64,000 nucleotides of DNA, taken from the NCBI GenBank assembly GCA_041751215.1, contig JBGSXW010000002.1, positions 3,123-67,122 on the forward strand, in the 5' to 3' direction. Shown here piece by piece: positions 25,148 through 59,010 of this stretch. The stretch comes from Candidatus Saccharimonadales bacterium (lineage in GTDB: Bacteria > Patescibacteriota > Saccharimonadia > Saccharimonadales > JBGSXW01). Numbering within the stretch: position 1 is the stretch's first letter; each line of letters starts with the position of its first letter. Below the pieces are notes generated by a model. That model was not told the DNA's origin, did no database searches, and saw nothing but the letters and a program-made list of their open reading frames with translations. The position numbers were made by a program, and so were the translations under genes.

Positions 25148-25264
25148 ACTTGCGATTCACTTTGTGGGCAACTACAGAGGCGAAAGTAGATCTGAGGAGA
25201 CAACCTCAACCAAGATCTTTCCATCGAACGACTAAACACGTTCACTGACAGTTGGGAGTAAACA

Positions 25265-25600
25265 ATGCACTACACCCTGATGAAGCACTTCAAGATGAAG
25301 GAGGACGGTTTCGTCGACTTCGGTCACAGCGCCTCGGTCCTCTTCATGGGTTTCATGACGGTCTTCGGTCCGTGCGTGATCTTTTTGGTCGCGCTGCCCT
25401 CGTTCGCTTACGCGACTGTTGAAGGCGGTGCGTTCTGGTTCATGCTGCTCACCGCCGCTCTCTGCTTGGTGGCGTACCTCGCCGCCCTCAGCGTCTTGAA
25501 GCTGGTGATGTTCACCATCGCCTGCTACATGGCCTGCCGCGAGGAGTTCATCAAGAAGATGCTCAACGAGAGTCGTTCATCCGAACGGTTCGATTCCTGA
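25265..25600 (+). CDS. small membrane protein 1 (GC-rich cassette)
   Basis: 111 aa with RBS gggag, hydrophobic helices and strong G/C at third codon positions. Confidence 0.6.
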   Translation: MHYTLMKHFKMKEDGFVDFGHSASVLFMGFMTVFGPCVIFLVALPSFAYATVEGGAFWFMLLTAALCLVAYLAALSVLKLVMFTIACYMACREEFIKKMLNESRSSERFDS

Positions 25601-25613
25601 GATTGGAGCAGCA

Positions 25614-25892
25614 ATGTCCGAAGTCAAGCAGTCCGAAAAGTACAAGAATGCCTACAGATCGGGCGTCCGTAGCTCGCTCATCTCGGCCTCTGTTGCCCTG
25701 ATGATGCTGTACTGGGCGCTCACCCCCACCCCGAATGTCACCGAGAAGATGCAGGTCAACACGTGGCTGCTGTTCGCAGTTGTCGCGGCGGGCTTCTTTT
25801 GCACAGTCTTGCTGGCCATCGGAAACTGGATCCTCGCCGAAGTCGCCAAGATGCACGAGTCCGACAGCGAGCCTGTCAACAAGTCCAACTGA
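25614..25892 (+). CDS. small membrane protein 2 (GC-rich cassette)
   Basis: 92 aa with RBS ggag, two hydrophobic helices, an N-terminal KQSEKYKNAYRSGV and strong GC3. Confidence 0.6.
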   Translation: MSEVKQSEKYKNAYRSGVRSSLISASVALMMLYWALTPTPNVTEKMQVNTWLLFAVVAAGFFCTVLLAIGNWILAEVAKMHESDSEPVNKSN

Positions 25893-25909
25893 ACGATCGG
25901 AGCAGATCA

Positions 25910-26188
25910 GTGACAGCAAAGATCAACCCGGAGAAATACAACGACTGCAAAGATGGTGTCCTCGAGTCGCTCTTCTCGGCCTTCATTTTTGGGGGTTTTG
26001 CCGCAATCACGTTGGGACTTGCAGTTACGGGCGATGCCGAAGACTCTGGTAGCCCGCAATGGGTTCCCTGGGTGCTCTTCGGCCTGCTGACCATCGCGGT
26101 CATCTGGTTGCTGTTGCGGGCGTACTACTACCGCATCAGGATGATCGACATCAAGTCCGGCGAGGAGGCTTCAGCCACCGAGCAGTAG
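25910..26188 (+). CDS. small membrane protein 3 (GC-rich cassette)
   Basis: GTG start preceded by ggag, inside track ORF 25763..26188. The N-terminal KINPEKYNDCKDGV parallels protein 2. Two hydrophobic helices. Confidence 0.5.
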   Translation: MTAKINPEKYNDCKDGVLESLFSAFIFGGFAAITLGLAVTGDAEDSGSPQWVPWVLFGLLTIAVIWLLLRAYYYRIRMIDIKSGEEASATEQ

Positions 26189-26217
26189 CACTACGCGCAA
26201 CATCGATTGGAGGTCGA

Positions 26218-26478
26218 ATGAGTGGCCACAACTACCCGCGAACAAGTGGCGAGTACGTACGGATCGCTGCGTTGTGGAAGCTGACGGGGCGTACCTTCAC
26301 GGGGGCTGCGCTGTTCAGCTTCGTCCTGCTGATTGCCATGTGGGGCAACTTCAGTTTCGTGGCGCGGCTTATCCAGATCGTCTTGGTTCTGACATACCTC
26401 GTAGGCCTTGCTACCTGCTTGGTGCGCTACGTAGTCAACATGAACCGAGCCTTTCCCGAGGAAACGCCAAACAACTGA
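26218..26478 (+). CDS. small membrane protein 4 (GC-rich cassette)
   Basis: ATG preceded by ggagg, inside track ORF 26059..26478. Two hydrophobic helices. Confidence 0.5.
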   Translation: MSGHNYPRTSGEYVRIAALWKLTGRTFTGAALFSFVLLIAMWGNFSFVARLIQIVLVLTYLVGLATCLVRYVVNMNRAFPEETPNN

Positions 26479-27401: not shown

Positions 27402-27588
27402 TTAATACTTAAGCTTGCTACTTGCGCGAGTTACTTAGATAATTATCCAGATTGGATGGGACCAAAGGACTTTAACAGTGCCAGGTTGGACGAGTCGCCT
27501 TTTTAATAAGAGACCGCTCCCCCGACCTGGCAAAGGGTAATTGGGAAACAAATCGCCCAGACATGGGCCAAACCGAAAGGAGAGGCCC

Positions 27589-28328
27589 GTGGCCTCACGC
27601 AATTGGATAGAGCTCAACGCAGCGGCGCAAGCTGCTGGTCGGCACGTCTGTGCTGGCATCGACCTCGACCTGAGCAAGCTGCCGGCTGGACTGGAGACTC
27701 CAGAAGGTCAGCTGTCGGCATGGTGGATCGCACCGGAGTCGACGCCATCACGATCACCCCGTACATGGGGCGGATCAAAGGGCTGCAACCGTTCCTCGAT
27801 CGGGCCGACAAGGGCGCGATCGTGCTCTGCCGGACCAGCAATGCCGGCGGTGCCGAGACGCAGGACATCCCCTGTGTGCCCCTGTTCGATCCCGACACGG
27901 AGCAGTTCTACGCGAGCGAGCGTCACTACGAGCTCGAGAACGGTCACCCGCCCACGGTGCTCATGAACGATGCGATGCGTATGCCGTACTACAAGTACAT
28001 CGCCTACCGTGTGACCAGCGCGTGGAACGCCAACGGCAACTGCGTGATGGTGGTCGGCGCGACGGTTCCGGAGGAGATGGTCGAGATCCGCAAGATCGCC
28101 GGCAACATGCCGTTGCTCATTCCGGGCATCGGCAAGCAAGGCGGCGACCTCAAGTCGGCGGTGCTCTCGGGCATCGACAGCGAGGGTCAGGGCATCATCG
28201 TGAACAACAGCTCCGCGCTGACGTTCGCGTCCGATGGGCCGGACTACGCCGATGCTGCGGCCAAGGTGGCCGAAGGAATGCACAAGGAGATCACGGAGAT
28301 CATCGCCCAGCACCTCGCTGCGGCCTGA
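27589..28328 (+). pseudogene. pyrF: orotidine-5'-phosphate decarboxylase (type 2 pyrF), apparently disrupted
   Basis: A GTG start after aaggagag gives ...HVCAGIDLDLSKLP (the N-terminal substrate-binding motif) in one frame. From ~27720 the homology continues in another frame (GVDAITITPYMG, VLCRTSNAGG, LLIPGIGKQGGD). The ~55-aa segment that should carry DxKxxD is absent. Confidence 0.55.
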
Positions 28329-28345
28329 ACGACCTAGGAGGTCAC

Positions 28346-29041
28346 ATGGGAGCAATCTACGACGCCCTGGTGGAGAATGATGGCATCCACTTGGGTGGCC
28401 ACTTCATCTACACCAGCGGCGTCCACGTCGAGCGCTACCACAACGTGCGCTGGTCGGCCTGCGACAACGACACCATGTCGATGATCGCGTCAGACATGGT
28501 CGACCCGCAGTGGGCTGGTCAAGTCGACGTCGTCTTCGGTCCAGAGACCTTGGGTCGGACTTTCGTGGATCGAGTTGGCCAGGCAGCGTCGCAACAAGGC
28601 GTTACTGGCCTGAAGGTCATGTGGTGCCAGATCGTCAAGCACGATGACGGCACTCGTGAGGTGCGCTTGCCAGACGAAGAGATGTACGGCTTCAGCCGTT
28701 ACCTCAAGCCTGGTGCCAAGGTGTGGATCATCGACGACGTGCTGTCCAAGGGCACGACTTCCCTCTTGGTCCTCAACTTCTTGCGCGCATTCGGCGTTGA
28801 AATCGTCGGTGTTTCGGCTGTGCTTCGGCTCAACCAGACGGTGACGGCGAAAGTGCTGGGTGTCCCTGCGCTGCAATTCCTCGAAGACGTCGTCGGCGTC
28901 GAGATGCTCAGCGAAGCCGAGTGCCAGGAACGCGGCATGTGCTCGCGCAACGAGCCGATCGTGCTCAAGCCCGGTCACGGATTCGAGTACCAGATCGAGC
29001 ACCCCGATTACCCCGGAGGATACGTCGATCTCGATCGATGA
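28346..29041 (+). CDS. type I phosphoribosyltransferase (orotate PRTase-like)
   Basis: ATG after ggaggtcac inside track ORF 28022..29041. PRPP-binding loop KVWIIDDVLSKGTTS, with strong GC3. Confidence 0.7.
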   Translation: MGAIYDALVENDGIHLGGHFIYTSGVHVERYHNVRWSACDNDTMSMIASDMVDPQWAGQVDVVFGPETLGRTFVDRVGQAASQQGVTGLKVMWCQIVKHDDGTREVRLPDEEMYGFSRYLKPGAKVWIIDDVLSKGTTSLLVLNFLRAFGVEIVGVSAVLRLNQTVTAKVLGVPALQFLEDVVGVEMLSEAECQERGMCSRNEPIVLKPGHGFEYQIEHPDYPGGYVDLDR

Positions 29042-29306
29042 CACCTCTTTGTCCTATCCGACCTTGCCGGTCGATACTTTTCCCTTTTGGGATTTGTGTC
29101 GGCCGGCTTTCTCTTTGGCCGCTCTTCAGCGCGAATCAACGTGGCCCAGTCGCCTGGCACAGCCAGTCGTGACGGCCACTCTGCGTCACGTGCTCTGTTG
29201 CTCGCCAGCAGTACTTTCGTGTGTACAACTGAGCTCTGCTACTCGCACCTTCCTTGTGCTTCATCACTGAAGAGACGCCCAAACTAACCGAGGGTTGGCT
29301 ACTAAT

Positions 29307-41243: not shown

Positions 41244-41438
41244 AAATTTAGTTTAGCACCTTTGACTAAATTGCCAGAACCTTGTAAAATAAACGCGTAC
41301 TTTAACAGTTCACACCTCCTTTGAGTACGGCACTTTGTTGCCCTTTTTTGCTTCATGGCACCAATGCGCCGTACTCAAAAGCTATCGACGGGAAATTCCT
41401 GTCACTATGTAGCATACGCGGCAGAGAGAAGGTTCGTC

Positions 41439-42218
41439 ATGACGACCGACGTCACCGACGAAATGCTTGGGCGCCTGTCCAAGAAGCACCACGAGTTGTA
41501 CCGAAGGGTCAGGGAGGGCTCACTCGATCCCGAGATGGTGCTCGATGGGCTGCAGTGGCTGATCGAAGGGGGCTTCAGATCAAAGCCGAAGCCGTTCCTT
41601 TTCGAACAGTCTGACGAGCAGCTCTTCAAGGCCATGGAGTGGTGGGGGCCGCACTTCAGCGATGTGGAATGGGAGGACGCCCAGTACCAGATCCCCGACT
41701 GGCCATCCGGAGGGCTTGTGGCTCCAGTGCTGGTTCCCTACTTCAGCACCGTCCAACAGACGTTCGAGCTGTTGTGGCGCACTGTCACCGAGGTTCACCC
41801 GACTATCACTCGCCGAGAGGACTTGCTGTCGGATCCAACCCACCTGAGGCCGTACACGGACACGGCATTCAAGAGCACCGATCACCCGGTCAACACCCTG
41901 CGCTGGGAGATCATTGACTTCAAGGGTGTCGACAACGCCATGCCATGTGAAGTGCGTCATGTGGGCTCACCCCATGCTGCCATCTTGGCCGCGGCCTGCC
42001 TCCATCCTGAATGGGTAAAGGCGATAGATGGCGGTGAAGTTCCAAACGTGTGGCTGTCTGGCTATGAAGTCAGTCTTGCTGGTGGCGAGAGGTGGTCGCA
42101 TGTTCCGGTTCTCGAGCTGTCGGGTGTCGGATCCCAGCTGCGACTCAGCGCCCATTTTGCCAGTGCCACTGAGCCGGGATATGCAAATCCAATCCGACGG
42201 AGGTTGTTAGAAGATTGA
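41439..42218 (+). CDS. hypothetical protein (single-gene GC-rich cassette)
   Basis: Start taken at Met29 of track ORF 41355..42218. Strong GC3 and no recognised motif. Confidence 0.55.
   Translation: MTTDVTDEMLGRLSKKHHELYRRVREGSLDPEMVLDGLQWLIEGGFRSKPKPFLFEQSDEQLFKAMEWWGPHFSDVEWEDAQYQIPDWPSGGLVAPVLVPYFSTVQQTFELLWRTVTEVHPTITRREDLLSDPTHLRPYTDTAFKSTDHPVNTLRWEIIDFKGVDNAMPCEVRHVGSPHAAILAAACLHPEWVKAIDGGEVPNVWLSGYEVSLAGGERWSHVPVLELSGVGSQLRLSAHFASATEPGYANPIRRRLLED

Positions 42219-54303: not shown

Positions 54304-54307
<4 letters not shown>
53438..54307 (+). CDS. atpG: F1 ATP synthase subunit gamma
   Basis: 289 aa with IKRRIRSVKSTRQITKAMELVAASKMRRAQ and ITQELAEITGGAEA. Confidence 0.93.
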
Positions 54308-56514
<2,207 letters not shown>

Positions 56515-56517
56515 ATC

Positions 56518-57318
56518 GTGAACGTACAAGAAATTGATGCTGCAACTAGCAGTAAAATCCAAGCTGCCTATAAACCCCTAGCCGACTGGCAGCACGCCGG
56601 ACCTTTTTGTGTTGATGGCCGGACCGGTGCAGTTACAGCCGGAACTCCCCGTGAAGACAGTCTGTATGTGCAAGCTATTGGCGGCAGTTTGCTGTTTGCG
56701 GTTTTGGTTCACTTACTAGAAGAACGAACCGGCGACTTCAACACCACCTGGGAAGAAGTACGCAAAAAGCTTTCAGAGTCTGGCTATTCTGTAGGCGTCC
56801 ACCGTGGCAGTCATCGTTCAGAGACTGGTTCTGACTGTGGCTTTGCCGACAATCTGCCAAAAATTGTGGCTCGCTTAAATGCAGCACAAGCAGACATTAG
56901 ATCGATTATCGAAGGCGCGACTCAGCCGTTTAACGACGAACAAGCCGAAATTTGGCAAGCGGTTGTTGACCAGGCCAAAACTGGTGAAAATCTACCGGGC
57001 TTTGTCAGCGGCGAAAAACTGGTTGGTGGCGCTGAGACTAGCAATGGTTCCGTGCAGACACTAGACGGTGACCACGCCGAAGTAGCCGCGGCTGTTAACC
57101 TAGCCGAGGGCACGACACTCGATACCGCTGGACTTATTAAAGAAGGCTTGCAGTCTTTTAATCTCGATTTGTGGTATGTGCTCAAAGTTGCCGAGGAAGT
57201 TTTTGCTCTTAACAAAGACCAAGTCATGCCAGCGGCTCTTGGACTTTATGTCGCAACCGAGATGGTCTTAGTTGAAGACAAAAAAAATTACCGACTGCCG
57301 GTAATCATTCATTCGTAA
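56518..57318 (+). CDS. hypothetical protein with CVDGR / DCG motifs
   Basis: 266 aa with a GTG start directly after atpC. Contains FCVDGRTG, LYVQAIGGS and HRSETGSDCGF. Confidence 0.55.
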   Translation: MNVQEIDAATSSKIQAAYKPLADWQHAGPFCVDGRTGAVTAGTPREDSLYVQAIGGSLLFAVLVHLLEERTGDFNTTWEEVRKKLSESGYSVGVHRGSHRSETGSDCGFADNLPKIVARLNAAQADIRSIIEGATQPFNDEQAEIWQAVVDQAKTGENLPGFVSGEKLVGGAETSNGSVQTLDGDHAEVAAAVNLAEGTTLDTAGLIKEGLQSFNLDLWYVLKVAEEVFALNKDQVMPAALGLYVATEMVLVEDKKNYRLPVIIHS

Positions 57319-57450
57319 ACTATTTTAGACAAAAGAAAAAACACGGAAAGCTAGAGATTATAAGAAGGAAGGGATGACCGGGGCGGTCGCCGCGTGAACG
57401 TGAAGTTCAGTTGGCGACCGCCGTCGATCATGCTGGTCTCAGCCGCGTGT

Positions 57451-58047
57451 TCAGCCGATGAGGCCGCCGACCCGCTCGGGTACGAACGGGATCGTCGAAC
57501 CTTCGTCCATGTGCTCGGCGGCGACGGGTTCGTCGACGAAGTGCCCGGGGGTGCCGGTGTAGACGAAGGCGCCCGTTGCTCTGGAGCCGGCGATGCGCTG
57601 GCCGCTGAGCATCAGGAAGTGGTGCGTGATGCTGATGCTGGTCGCAGAGAGCGATGACATGAGCTGATCGGTGCTCAGCGCGTCGTAGAGGCGGTTGGCC
57701 GCTTCCTGCTGCGCTGCGTAGTGGTGTGCGAGCTCCGCGTTCATGTCGCGGAATGAGCGCGAACCCCCTGCTGCGCCGCAATCCTCATGGCAGTGCAGTG
57801 CGATCACCAGCGCGGTGTTGTCGTCGCACTTCTTGCTCCAGAGGTCGCCGAGGTTGGCGATGAAGCCGTTCCTCGCTCTGGAGTTGAGCAGCCCTGAGGC
57901 GCCACCAGCGATCGAGTAGAGGTGGAACCCCTCTTCGTCGTCGTAGGCCTCGAGCAGACTCGGATGGATCCGGATCAGTCGAGGGTCGACACAGCTGATG
58001 CCTGCGGTGAGCATTGCGAGCTTTGGTGGATTTGAGTCCCCCATCAC
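57451..58047 (-). CDS. beta-carbonic-anhydrase-like-motif protein (single-gene GC-rich cassette)
   Basis: 198 aa with strong GC3. SCVDPRL (CxDxR) and ALHCHEDCGAAGG (HxxC) are spaced as in beta-CA-type metal sites. It is followed on its strand by the GC-rich hairpin ggcggtcgcc...ggcgaccgcc. Confidence 0.5.
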   Translation of the reverse strand: MMGDSNPPKLAMLTAGISCVDPRLIRIHPSLLEAYDDEEGFHLYSIAGGASGLLNSRARNGFIANLGDLWSKKCDDNTALVIALHCHEDCGAAGGSRSFRDMNAELAHHYAAQQEAANRLYDALSTDQLMSSLSATSISITHHFLMLSGQRIAGSRATGAFVYTGTPGHFVDEPVAAEHMDEGSTIPFVPERVGGLIG

Positions 58048-58299
58048 TCTCCCTTCATTTCTTCTTGTGGTTGGATGTTGCTTGCTACTTGCATGCCTAG
58101 GTCAATGTGCAGTTGACCTGAGCAGGCAAGTAACAAACGTTCCAGCTTTCCGTGTTGTTAAGGTGCCGCGCGAAGTAATCCCCGCACGTCTGTGGTATTG
58201 CCGATTCGGCTTTACCTAACGCGCAATTATACTCCATTTACTACTGTTTGTAAAGAGTCCTTATGCTTCCGAGGCTACGACCATGTTATAGTTGCGGGT

Positions 58300-59010
58300 A
58301 TGAAAAGCATCGATGATCGACCCAACTCAATATTAGTAGTTGTCGCCCACCCTGATGACGCAGACTTTATATGTGGCGGTACGATTGCGCTTTGGGCCGA
58401 GCAAGGGTCTGAGATTAACCTACTGGTCTGTACTGATGGCTCAGTTGGGGGTCATGACGAGAACCTGACGGCGCAAGAACTTGAGGAAACACGCAAGCAA
58501 GAGCAGCGCGAGGCGGCTGATCTGCTTGGCATCAAGAATGTTCATCACTTAAGTTTTCCTGACGGCGGACTCGAGGCTAACCGAGACCTTAAACTACAAG
58601 TCACTCAAAAGATTCGCGAACTCCAGCCCGATCTCGTCATTACGTTTGATCCAACTTTTTTCTATTCCTCAGAACTTAACTATGTAAACCACGCCGACCA
58701 CCGAGCGGTTGGGGAAGCTACTTTTGACTGCGTCTATCCCCTCGCCCGCGACAAACGAAGTTTTCCTGAACTCGCCCTTGAACCTCACAAGGTCAAGATA
58801 CTTTTAATGTTTAATCCAAGTAACGCCAGTTGTTTTGTGGATATTGAAGCTAAAACTGACTCTAAGTGCCAAGCACTGCTCTCCCATGCTAGTCAGTTTA
58901 AGGATGAAGCTGCGATTAAAGCCATGGTTGAGAGGTTCGCAAAATACGACGGCGCCAAAGCTGGCTGCAATAGCGCCGAATGTTTTGTGAGGTTAGACCT
59001 CCCAGCGTAG
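58300..59010 (+). CDS. PIG-L/LmbE-family deacetylase
   Basis: Start taken at Met37 of track ORF 58192..59010. Contains ILVVVAHPDDADF and NHADH. Confidence 0.85.
   Translation: MKSIDDRPNSILVVVAHPDDADFICGGTIALWAEQGSEINLLVCTDGSVGGHDENLTAQELEETRKQEQREAADLLGIKNVHHLSFPDGGLEANRDLKLQVTQKIRELQPDLVITFDPTFFYSSELNYVNHADHRAVGEATFDCVYPLARDKRSFPELALEPHKVKILLMFNPSNASCFVDIEAKTDSKCQALLSHASQFKDEAAIKAMVERFAKYDGAKAGCNSAECFVRLDLPA

Follow-up and report, generated by a model that had tools for sequence, protein, structure and literature searches.

Two predicted carbonic anhydrase-like genes of the zeta and beta classes beside the ATP synthase operon of Saccharimonadales

Overview of the locus

A 64 kb stretch of DNA from a member of the Saccharimonadales (Patescibacteria), hereafter the window, carries two convergent genes, P1 and P2, at the end of its ATP synthase (atp) operon. 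Comparison with the contigs of related genomes (labelled L002, L003, L009, and L021/L022) made it probable that these are non-homologous, functionally analogous carbonic anhydrase-like genes with Cys-His-Cys zinc sites, both tied to the atp operon, with P2 as an old resident whose guanine-plus-cytosine content at third codon positions (GC3) is maintained and whose mRNA would carry a helix closing its two ends. Each protein is a divergent member of a known family, and the new part is the arrangement of the two genes, the maintained GC anomaly, and the candidate helix formed by an inverted repeat that brackets P2. An earlier note on this DNA had read P2 as a foreign homologue landing next to its native counterpart P1; that interpretation was partly supported, its beta-carbonic anhydrase insight and the functional relatedness of the pair being right and its xenology and recent insertion wrong.

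The two open reading frames (ORFs) were present as the note had described them, with P1 starting 3 nt past the atpC stop codon and P2 (57451-58047, minus strand) encoding 198 amino acids from a GTG at 58047 or 197 from an ATG at 58044. The described compositions were also borne out, P1 being native and P2 an island of 64% GC in a 48% GC genome. The GC contents of the three P2 codon positions (GC1/2/3) were 0.62/0.48/0.82, giving the most extreme GC3 among 58 long ORFs of the window (median 0.48, standard deviation 0.08; window average 48% GC). The independent Logan assembly of SRR28170463 was identical across 3,200 bp covering both GC-island junctions and, therefore, the island is no assembly chimera. 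Further GC-rich islands (58-65% GC) were observed at window positions 25250-26300, 27450-29050, and 41355-42218, including a 241-amino acid ORF without a Pfam match (27603-28328), a phosphoribosyltransferase-domain ORF ending at 29041 (PF00156, GC3 0.66), and a 287-amino acid orphan (41355-42218, GC3 0.68).

Class assignment of P1 and P2

P1 is a zeta-class carbonic anhydrase-like protein according to its modelled CDCA fold. The AlphaFold2 (AF2) model had a predicted local distance difference test (pLDDT) score of 93.9, and its significant Foldseek matches in the PDB were limited to repeats R1-R3 of CDCA1 (E 1.5e-7 to 7e-7, probability 1.0). A total of 219 homologues were detected, mainly from Patescibacteria and Saccharimonadales and with a precomputed PF18484 (CDCA) match in the majority, and the family profile matched CDCA1 with CVDGR aligned to CVDGR. 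An alignment of 35 sequences displayed C31, D33, R35, H95, H99, and C107 as invariant residues, which would supply the Cys-His-Cys metal ligands (with H95 or H99 as the His) and the Asp/Arg dyad of this class. The zeta class, for which diatoms are the best-known source, thereby gains a large family in bacteria.

P1-like CDCA genes were also identified on contigs of metagenome-assembled genomes (MAGs) labelled Chromatiales or Gammaproteobacteria (L005/L008, JANQEV010000132.1; L012, L013, L016, L018, and L020), including one near dnaA/yidC/trmE and that of L020 adjoining fragments of the inorganic-carbon pump DabA. Either the family extends past the Patescibacteria or certain of these bins are mixed.

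P2 is, on its sequence motifs and predicted fold, a very divergent, C-terminally extended beta-like carbonic anhydrase-type protein and an offshoot of the small Pro_CA_2 family. A k-mer search matched P2 itself alone, and an exhaustive phmmer search over 1.84 billion representative proteins returned four proteins, one of which (P0123) carries PF20393 (Pro_CA_2) and adjoins an atp operon. Among the members of the P2 family, Pfam identified Pro_CA in two of four (best E 8.6e-5) and Pro_CA_2 in one of four (E 1.4e-9), while the family profile reached Pro_CA_2 proteins of other Patescibacteria (E 6e-11 to 6e-7). Against PDB sequences, seven of nine profile matches were beta-carbonic anhydrases with CxDxR and HxDCG aligned, and the putative zinc-site motifs aligned to CMDAR and HTDCG of Rv1284. 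The invariant residues of P2 were C19, D21, R23, G48, H87, E88, and C90, of which C19, D21, R23, H87, and C90 were constant in a 14-sequence alignment; no member of the family, nor of Pro_CA_2, departed from the Cys, Asp, His, and Cys positions. The best Foldseek matches of the AF2 model (core pLDDT ~85-95) were the beta-carbonic anhydrases 1G5C (Cab), 6Y04, and 8THM, these matches including TvaCA1 and a carboxysomal beta-carbonic anhydrase by name, together with the carbonyl sulfide (COS) hydrolase 3VQJ (probability 0.82-1.0), consistent with a beta-carbonic anhydrase fold. The suggestion in the earlier note that the CxDxR and HxxC motifs recall a beta-carbonic anhydrase zinc site was hence supported by the profile matches to Pro_CA_2, Pro_CA, and solved beta-carbonic anhydrases as well as by the best-matching folds.

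The same note had proposed that P1 and P2 are homologous, based on motifs occurring in the same order. All of these motifs were found, i.e., FCVDGR, LYVQAIGGS, and SDCGF in P1 and SCVDPR, LYSIAGGAS, and HCHEDCGA in P2. The shared CxDxR...GG...H..C layout is real insofar as the motifs coincide with invariant catalytic positions in each family, but by sequence statistics the sharing did not go beyond chance. BLASTP of P1 against P2 gave no in-register match, its best hit (E 0.09) falling in other regions of the two sequences, and alignment of the P1 (35 relatives) and P2 (four members) profiles with hhalign gave a probability of 1.3% (P 0.04), with CVDxR, GG, and the His nonetheless aligned, falling to 0.1% with a deeper P2 profile of 14 sequences. 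Foldseek displayed no cross matches, with the P1 model reaching CDCA1 alone and the P2 model no zeta-class structure. Since the profile-profile similarity that the note had named as its test was not significant, and the folds differ, the reading of P1 and P2 as a xenologue pair is refuted. Beta and zeta carbonic anhydrases have different architectures with the same three metal ligands, the same Asp/Arg dyad, and superimposable pockets (PMC8217695), and P1 and P2 have their motif order in common because the two classes share this active-site plan.

Conservation and antiquity of the pair

The convergent P1-P2 pair was conserved in five related Saccharimonadales genomes (the window, L002, L003, L009, and L021/L022), right after atpC wherever upstream sequence exists. 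The P1 orthologues were 82% (L002), 63% (L003), 54% (L009), and 49% (L021/L022) identical to that of the window, and each was immediately followed by a convergent P2 homologue of 0.61-0.66 GC in loci of 51-53% GC; P2 GC3 was 0.77-0.89 in all five genomes. The gene order was also maintained, with the atp operon followed by P1, the oppositely oriented P2, a Na+/H+ exchanger (L009 and L021), a PIG-L family gene, and an UvrD/AddA-type helicase. A scan of the genome collection added one member to the pairs (L009), whereas none of the 68 loci recovered from metagenomes with P1 as anchor had a neighbor resembling P2.

These data bear directly on the proposal of the earlier note that P2 is a foreign homologue of P1, recently inserted by homology-facilitated insertion or a replacement in progress. 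That proposal is consistent with the contrast in GC (64% versus 48%) and GC3 (0.82 versus 0.48), the motif order common to both proteins, and the presence of other GC-rich genes in the window, as this genome may take up GC-rich DNA. It is nevertheless highly improbable. A recent island would be absent from close relatives, but P2 occupies the same site in L002, L003, L009, and L021/L022 beside P1 proteins that have diverged to 49-82% identity; P1 and P2 lack detectable homology and differ in fold; and the promoter, leader hairpin, and bracketing repeat described below are conserved and co-evolving. Furthermore, searches of 1.84 billion representative proteins, of viral contigs, and of plasmids yielded no candidate donor or close relative, the motif flanking P2 is not repeated elsewhere in the window, and no target-site duplication was seen on reading the ends of the bracketing repeat. 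A foreign origin was likewise contradicted by the nearest outside relatives of P2, which are atp-operon-linked Pro_CA_2 genes of other Patescibacteria. A sharp jump in GC at this locus is not equivalent to recent foreign DNA, the anomaly being a long-standing, maintained feature of a single gene.

Divergence and GC3 of P2

At fourfold-degenerate sites of P1, the window was 48% identical to L002 and 33% identical to L003 (chance 27-29%), and synonymous sites beside P2 were fully saturated in the deepest pair tested. Because neutral sites are near saturation (window-L003) or substantially turned over (window-L002), the P2 GC3 of ~0.8 is no passive relic of one ancestral transfer, and it would instead be actively maintained. 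Third positions of all five P2 genes contained C about twice as often as G. Selected RNA structure was not detected within the P2 coding sequence (CDS), where minimum free energy z-scores of -0.02 to -2.7 against synonymous-codon shuffles did not differ from those of P1 controls. Candidate causes of the GC3 are successive replacements by alleles of an unsampled pool, a local hotspot of GC-biased conversion or recombination, and selection on C-ending codons.

P2 was also the most diverged segment of the locus. Its proteins were 27-34% identical pairwise or undetectable by BLAST, compared to 63-82% for the adjacent P1 proteins, and the window P2 was as similar to canonical Pro_CA_2 of distant Patescibacteria (32%) as to the P2 of its nearest relative (27%). 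Nucleotide identity between the window and L002 was 75% in the P1 CDS, 67% in the left spacer, 59% in the P2 CDS (shuffled baseline 53%), 76.5% in the promoter-bearing spacer, and 75% at the 5' end of the PIG-L gene.

This pattern could reflect cassette exchange, in which divergent GC-rich alleles drawn from an unsampled pool replace the resident P2 time and again through recombination in conserved flanks, and which would account for both the extreme divergence and the persistent GC-richness of P2. In its favor, divergence of the CDS far exceeds that of the non-coding sequence flanking it, conserved sequence blocks lie on either side, GC3 is high despite near-saturated synonymous sites next to it, and P2 similarities are out of step with those of P1 (window-L003 34%, window-L002 27%). 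However, no pool member was found among the 1.84 billion representatives, 5.8 billion clusters, viral contigs, and plasmids; breakpoints would be needed at the edges of the CDS five separate times; and compensatory changes have preserved a GC-rich hairpin immediately 3' of the CDS, arguing for evolution in place. Cassette exchange is thus distinctly unlikely. Another reading, also unlikely, is that in Saccharibacteria an evolutionary process with local action operates on P2, being either a site-specific recombination or GC-biased conversion hotspot or a programmed diversification/inversion cassette acting on an atp-linked carbonic anhydrase; it is based on the co-evolving inverted repeat around P2, its near-saturated divergence, and the GC3 of ~0.8 with a twofold excess of C over G, which persists across lineages with near-saturated or saturated neutral sites. 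Whichever process operates, P2 is a natural case for asking what holds synonymous GC far from the genome equilibrium.

Predicted regulatory elements around P2

The features of the locus are compiled in Table 1. While P1 would be co-expressed with the ATPase, P2 would be expressed separately from its own predicted near-consensus promoter. This promoter lies in the most conserved part of the spacer, and L002 retains both of its hexamers, L003 nearly so. The predicted leader is ~170 nt and contains a hairpin kept in the same three genomes, for which RNAalifold gave 25 pairs, 11 with compensatory changes; in the minus sense, G.U cells outnumbered C.A cells by ~6 to 2. In the P2 3' untranslated region (UTR), a GC-rich hairpin displayed compensatory changes in L002 and no U-tract on either strand, such that, if it ends transcription, it differs from a canonical intrinsic terminator.

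Table 1. Positions of features at the P1/P2 locus (window coordinates) and of canonical Pro_CA_2 genes in other loci (contig coordinates).
Feature	Position	Strand	Basis
atpC (ATP synthase epsilon), final canonical atp-operon gene	56086..56514	+	ORF; PF02823 on identical Logan gene
P1, zeta-class (CDCA-like) carbonic anhydrase-like protein, 266 amino acids, native composition	56518..57318	+	homologues, model, Foldseek
P2, divergent C-terminally extended beta-class (Pro_CA_2-related) carbonic anhydrase-like protein	57451..58044	-	ORF, profiles, model
Bracketing inverted repeat, 3' arm (core 57341-57355), 19 nt past P1 stop	57337..57355	-	
GC-rich hairpin in P2 3' UTR, stem GGCGGTCGCC/GGCGACCGCC	57382..57422	-	inverted-repeat search, alignment
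Shine-Dalgarno-like GAAGGGAGA immediately 5' of P2 start	58048..58056	-	sequence reading
25-bp hairpin in P2 5' leader, kept in window, L002, and L003	58082..58136	-	
Bracketing inverted repeat, 5' arm	58141..58159	-	
Predicted sigma-70-type promoter for P2 (TTTACA, 17 nt spacer, TATAAT; 11/12 matches)	58226..58254	-	
PIG-L family deacetylase (BshB/MshB-like), syntenic right-hand neighbor outside the pair	58300..59010	+	
Canonical Pro_CA_2 gene, L093	5001-5396		
Canonical Pro_CA_2 gene, L094, L095, L096, and L097	5001-5447		
Canonical Pro_CA_2 gene, L007	6001-6432		

An inverted repeat brackets the whole of P2, and on sequence evidence it is most simply a helix closing the 5' leader onto the 3' end of the mRNA. 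Its 14-mer occurred in the 64 kb window at the 3' arm and its partner only, flanking none of the other GC-rich islands. In the relatives the arms were complementary at 15/15 (L002), 14/14 (L003, with matched C-to-T and G-to-A changes), 11/11 (L009), and 15/16 (L021) positions, and in all five loci the left arm begins 6-20 nt past the P1 stop with the right arm upstream of the P2 start. Longest-complement shuffles and full-length partition-function folds were used for the statistics: the complementary run was matched by 0-3 of 1000 shuffles in each of the five loci, and the predicted pairing probability was at least 0.98 in full-length minus-strand folds. In the arm-anchored alignment, 93% of cells were paired versus 33-45% with slid partners, and seven of 15 pairs were compensatory double changes around an invariant GGAAAG/CTTTCC core. 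Complementary 5' leader and 3' UTR segments kept by compensatory change are the pattern expected for icaR-like pairing, and the P2 mRNA would thereby carry both the 25-bp leader hairpin and a closing helix of 11-19 bp. Energies computed with RNAduplex for pairing of the long UTRs were not informative (z -0.6 to +1.0), no Rfam family was identified at the locus, and the repeat was absent from canonical Pro_CA_2 loci and L007. In L021, only 7 nt separate the 5' arm ACCAGGAAAGAAGGCA from the start codon, and this arm may also act as the ribosome-binding site.

The arms could alternatively be DNA recombination sites, i.e., an inverton or the scar of an inversion, with P2 flipping between its own promoter and co-transcription with atp-P1 in the ancestral atpC-carbonic anhydrase orientation. 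The repeats, 11-19 bp long and sharing the invariant GGAAAG/CTTTCC core, do enclose the whole gene and leave the predicted promoter outside, the canonical non-inverted loci lack the repeat, and because canonical Pro_CA_2 is co-directional with atpC, an inversion of P2 occurred at some point in its history. This alternative is improbable, as a single orientation was displayed by the assemblies of all five genomes and by the independent contig L004 (which ends just past the arm), and as mismatches of the G.U type, like the covarying leader hairpin next to the arm, indicate pairing at the RNA level; no recombinase was noticed beside the locus, the rest of the genome not having been searched. A closing helix in the mRNA remains the preferred reading, and the bracket is a compact, covariation-supported candidate for 5'-3' closure of a whole mRNA.

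Association with the ATP synthase operon

Canonical Pro_CA_2 genes were identified directly after atpC and on the same strand in three of three contexts (L093, L094/L095, and L096/L097), and that of L007 adjoins atpB. Their composition is native, with GC3 of 0.35-0.39 in loci of 39-40% GC. A P1-like gene after atpC was confined to the clade bearing P2, comprising the window with its Logan copies L001 and L092, L003, and L021/L022, and was found in none of 61 other testable loci. The history requiring the fewest assumptions has a beta-like enzyme as the ancestral atp-operon partner in the Patescibacteria, a zeta-like enzyme taking the post-atpC slot in this clade, and the beta-like gene (P2) persisting just beyond P1 in inverted orientation, which is close to the reverse of the scenario in the earlier note. 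Small carbonic anhydrase-like genes, either beta-like Pro_CA_2 or zeta-like CDCA, hence attach to the ATP synthase operon in Patescibacteria, and one clade keeps both.

From this gene context, P1 and P2 may each interconvert CO2 and bicarbonate plus a proton near the proton-translocating F-ATPase. A Na+/H+ exchanger (PF00999) lies between P2 and PIG-L in L009 (1315-2739) and L021 (4716-6113) and is absent from the window; its position beside the pair in these two relatives, together with carbonic anhydrase-like genes near the F-ATPase, suggests a module for pH/proton homeostasis. No paper describing a linkage of carbonic anhydrase and ATP synthase in Patescibacteria was found in the literature searchable here, and the linkage yields a hypothesis, open to testing, on how these ultra-small epibionts handle protons and bicarbonate.

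Within the atp operon itself, a 127-amino acid ORF without a family match lies between atpG and atpD in the window (54304-54687, plus strand) and a 136-amino acid ORF between atpD and atpC in L021 (2132-2542), and these may be lineage-specific accessory atp-operon genes.

Weighing the evidence

Several observations count against the combined interpretation of the locus. Enzyme function, use of the promoter, and pairing of the RNA are predictions throughout. Taken individually, the window P1 scored 14.5 bits against the Pfam CDCA model (E 0.027), below the gathering cut-off of 29.2, and the window P2 had no Pfam match up to E 10. The fold matches of P2 were modest (E 1e-3 to 1e-2; template modeling [TM] scores 0.33-0.46), its final 33 residues were unmodelled, and the L021 homologue (3959-4492, minus strand) contains CVDCH, with His in place of the dyad Arg. 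Regarding the bracket, its alignment was anchored on the arms themselves, which favors structure; G.U evidence for the folding strand was 3 to 2 and plus-strand folds also form the helix; and the Shine-Dalgarno sequence is not consistently covered, nor does a conserved U-tract follow. Lastly, none of the tests run accounts for the maintained GC3, the CDS folding z-scores being unremarkable.

Some of these features would also fit P2 being a decaying or neofunctionalized remnant under relaxed constraint that is not a carbonic anhydrase, its frame staying open partly since GC-rich sequence has few stop codons. The very fast divergence (27-34% pairwise or undetectable), the lack of a Pfam match in the window P2, the Arg to His change in L021, and the variable, poorly modelled C-terminal tails are all compatible with such decay. 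We give it little credence given the Cys, Asp, His, and Cys positions that stay constant throughout the family and Pro_CA_2, the intact frames with a GC1/GC2/GC3 coding pattern in five genomes, and the conservation of the promoter, ribosome-binding site, and RNA elements. Under the favored interpretation of P2 as an old, atp-linked carbonic anhydrase-like gene, the closing helix would most likely control mRNA stability or processing, through end protection or as an RNase III-type substrate, and this role is likelier than translational occlusion because the ribosome-binding site is inconsistently covered.

Comparison with known systems

The closest known system to P1 is CDCA1 of Thalassiosira weissflogii (PF18484; PDB 3BOB, 3BOH, and 3UK8), which it resembles in its predicted fold, the alignment of CVDGR, and the Cys/His/Cys ligands and Asp/Arg dyad that all aligned P1 relatives retain. 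P1 consists of one 266-amino acid domain and CDCA1 of a triple repeat, identity between them is 17-20% with TM scores of 0.48-0.60, and P1 has additional helices, is bacterial, and is joined to the atp operon in the P2-bearing clade only.

For P2, the closest known system is Pro_CA_2 (PF20393), small putative beta-type carbonic anhydrases, with the Cab-type beta-carbonic anhydrases (PF00484; PDB 1G5C and 1YLK) farther away. Pro_CA_2 and P2 share the CxDxR, AGG, and HE(D)CG motifs and linkage to the atp operon. In contrast, P2 is 25-37% identical to these proteins, has a C-terminus ~50 residues longer, is inverted relative to atpC, has a GC3 of 0.8 versus the native 0.35-0.39, and diverges extremely fast with its own promoter, leader hairpin, and bracketing helix.

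Analogues of the bracket are the 5'-3' UTR base-pairing of icaR in Staphylococcus aureus (PMC3868564) and hbs in Bacillus subtilis (PMC5737220), where, as predicted for P2, a 3' UTR stretch complements the 5' leader of the same mRNA over a segment long enough for RNase III or end protection. The P2 pairing differs in being inferred from covariation and folding, in closing essentially the whole mRNA, in not consistently covering the Shine-Dalgarno sequence, and in having no Rfam match, with the element abutting the stop codon of a convergent gene.

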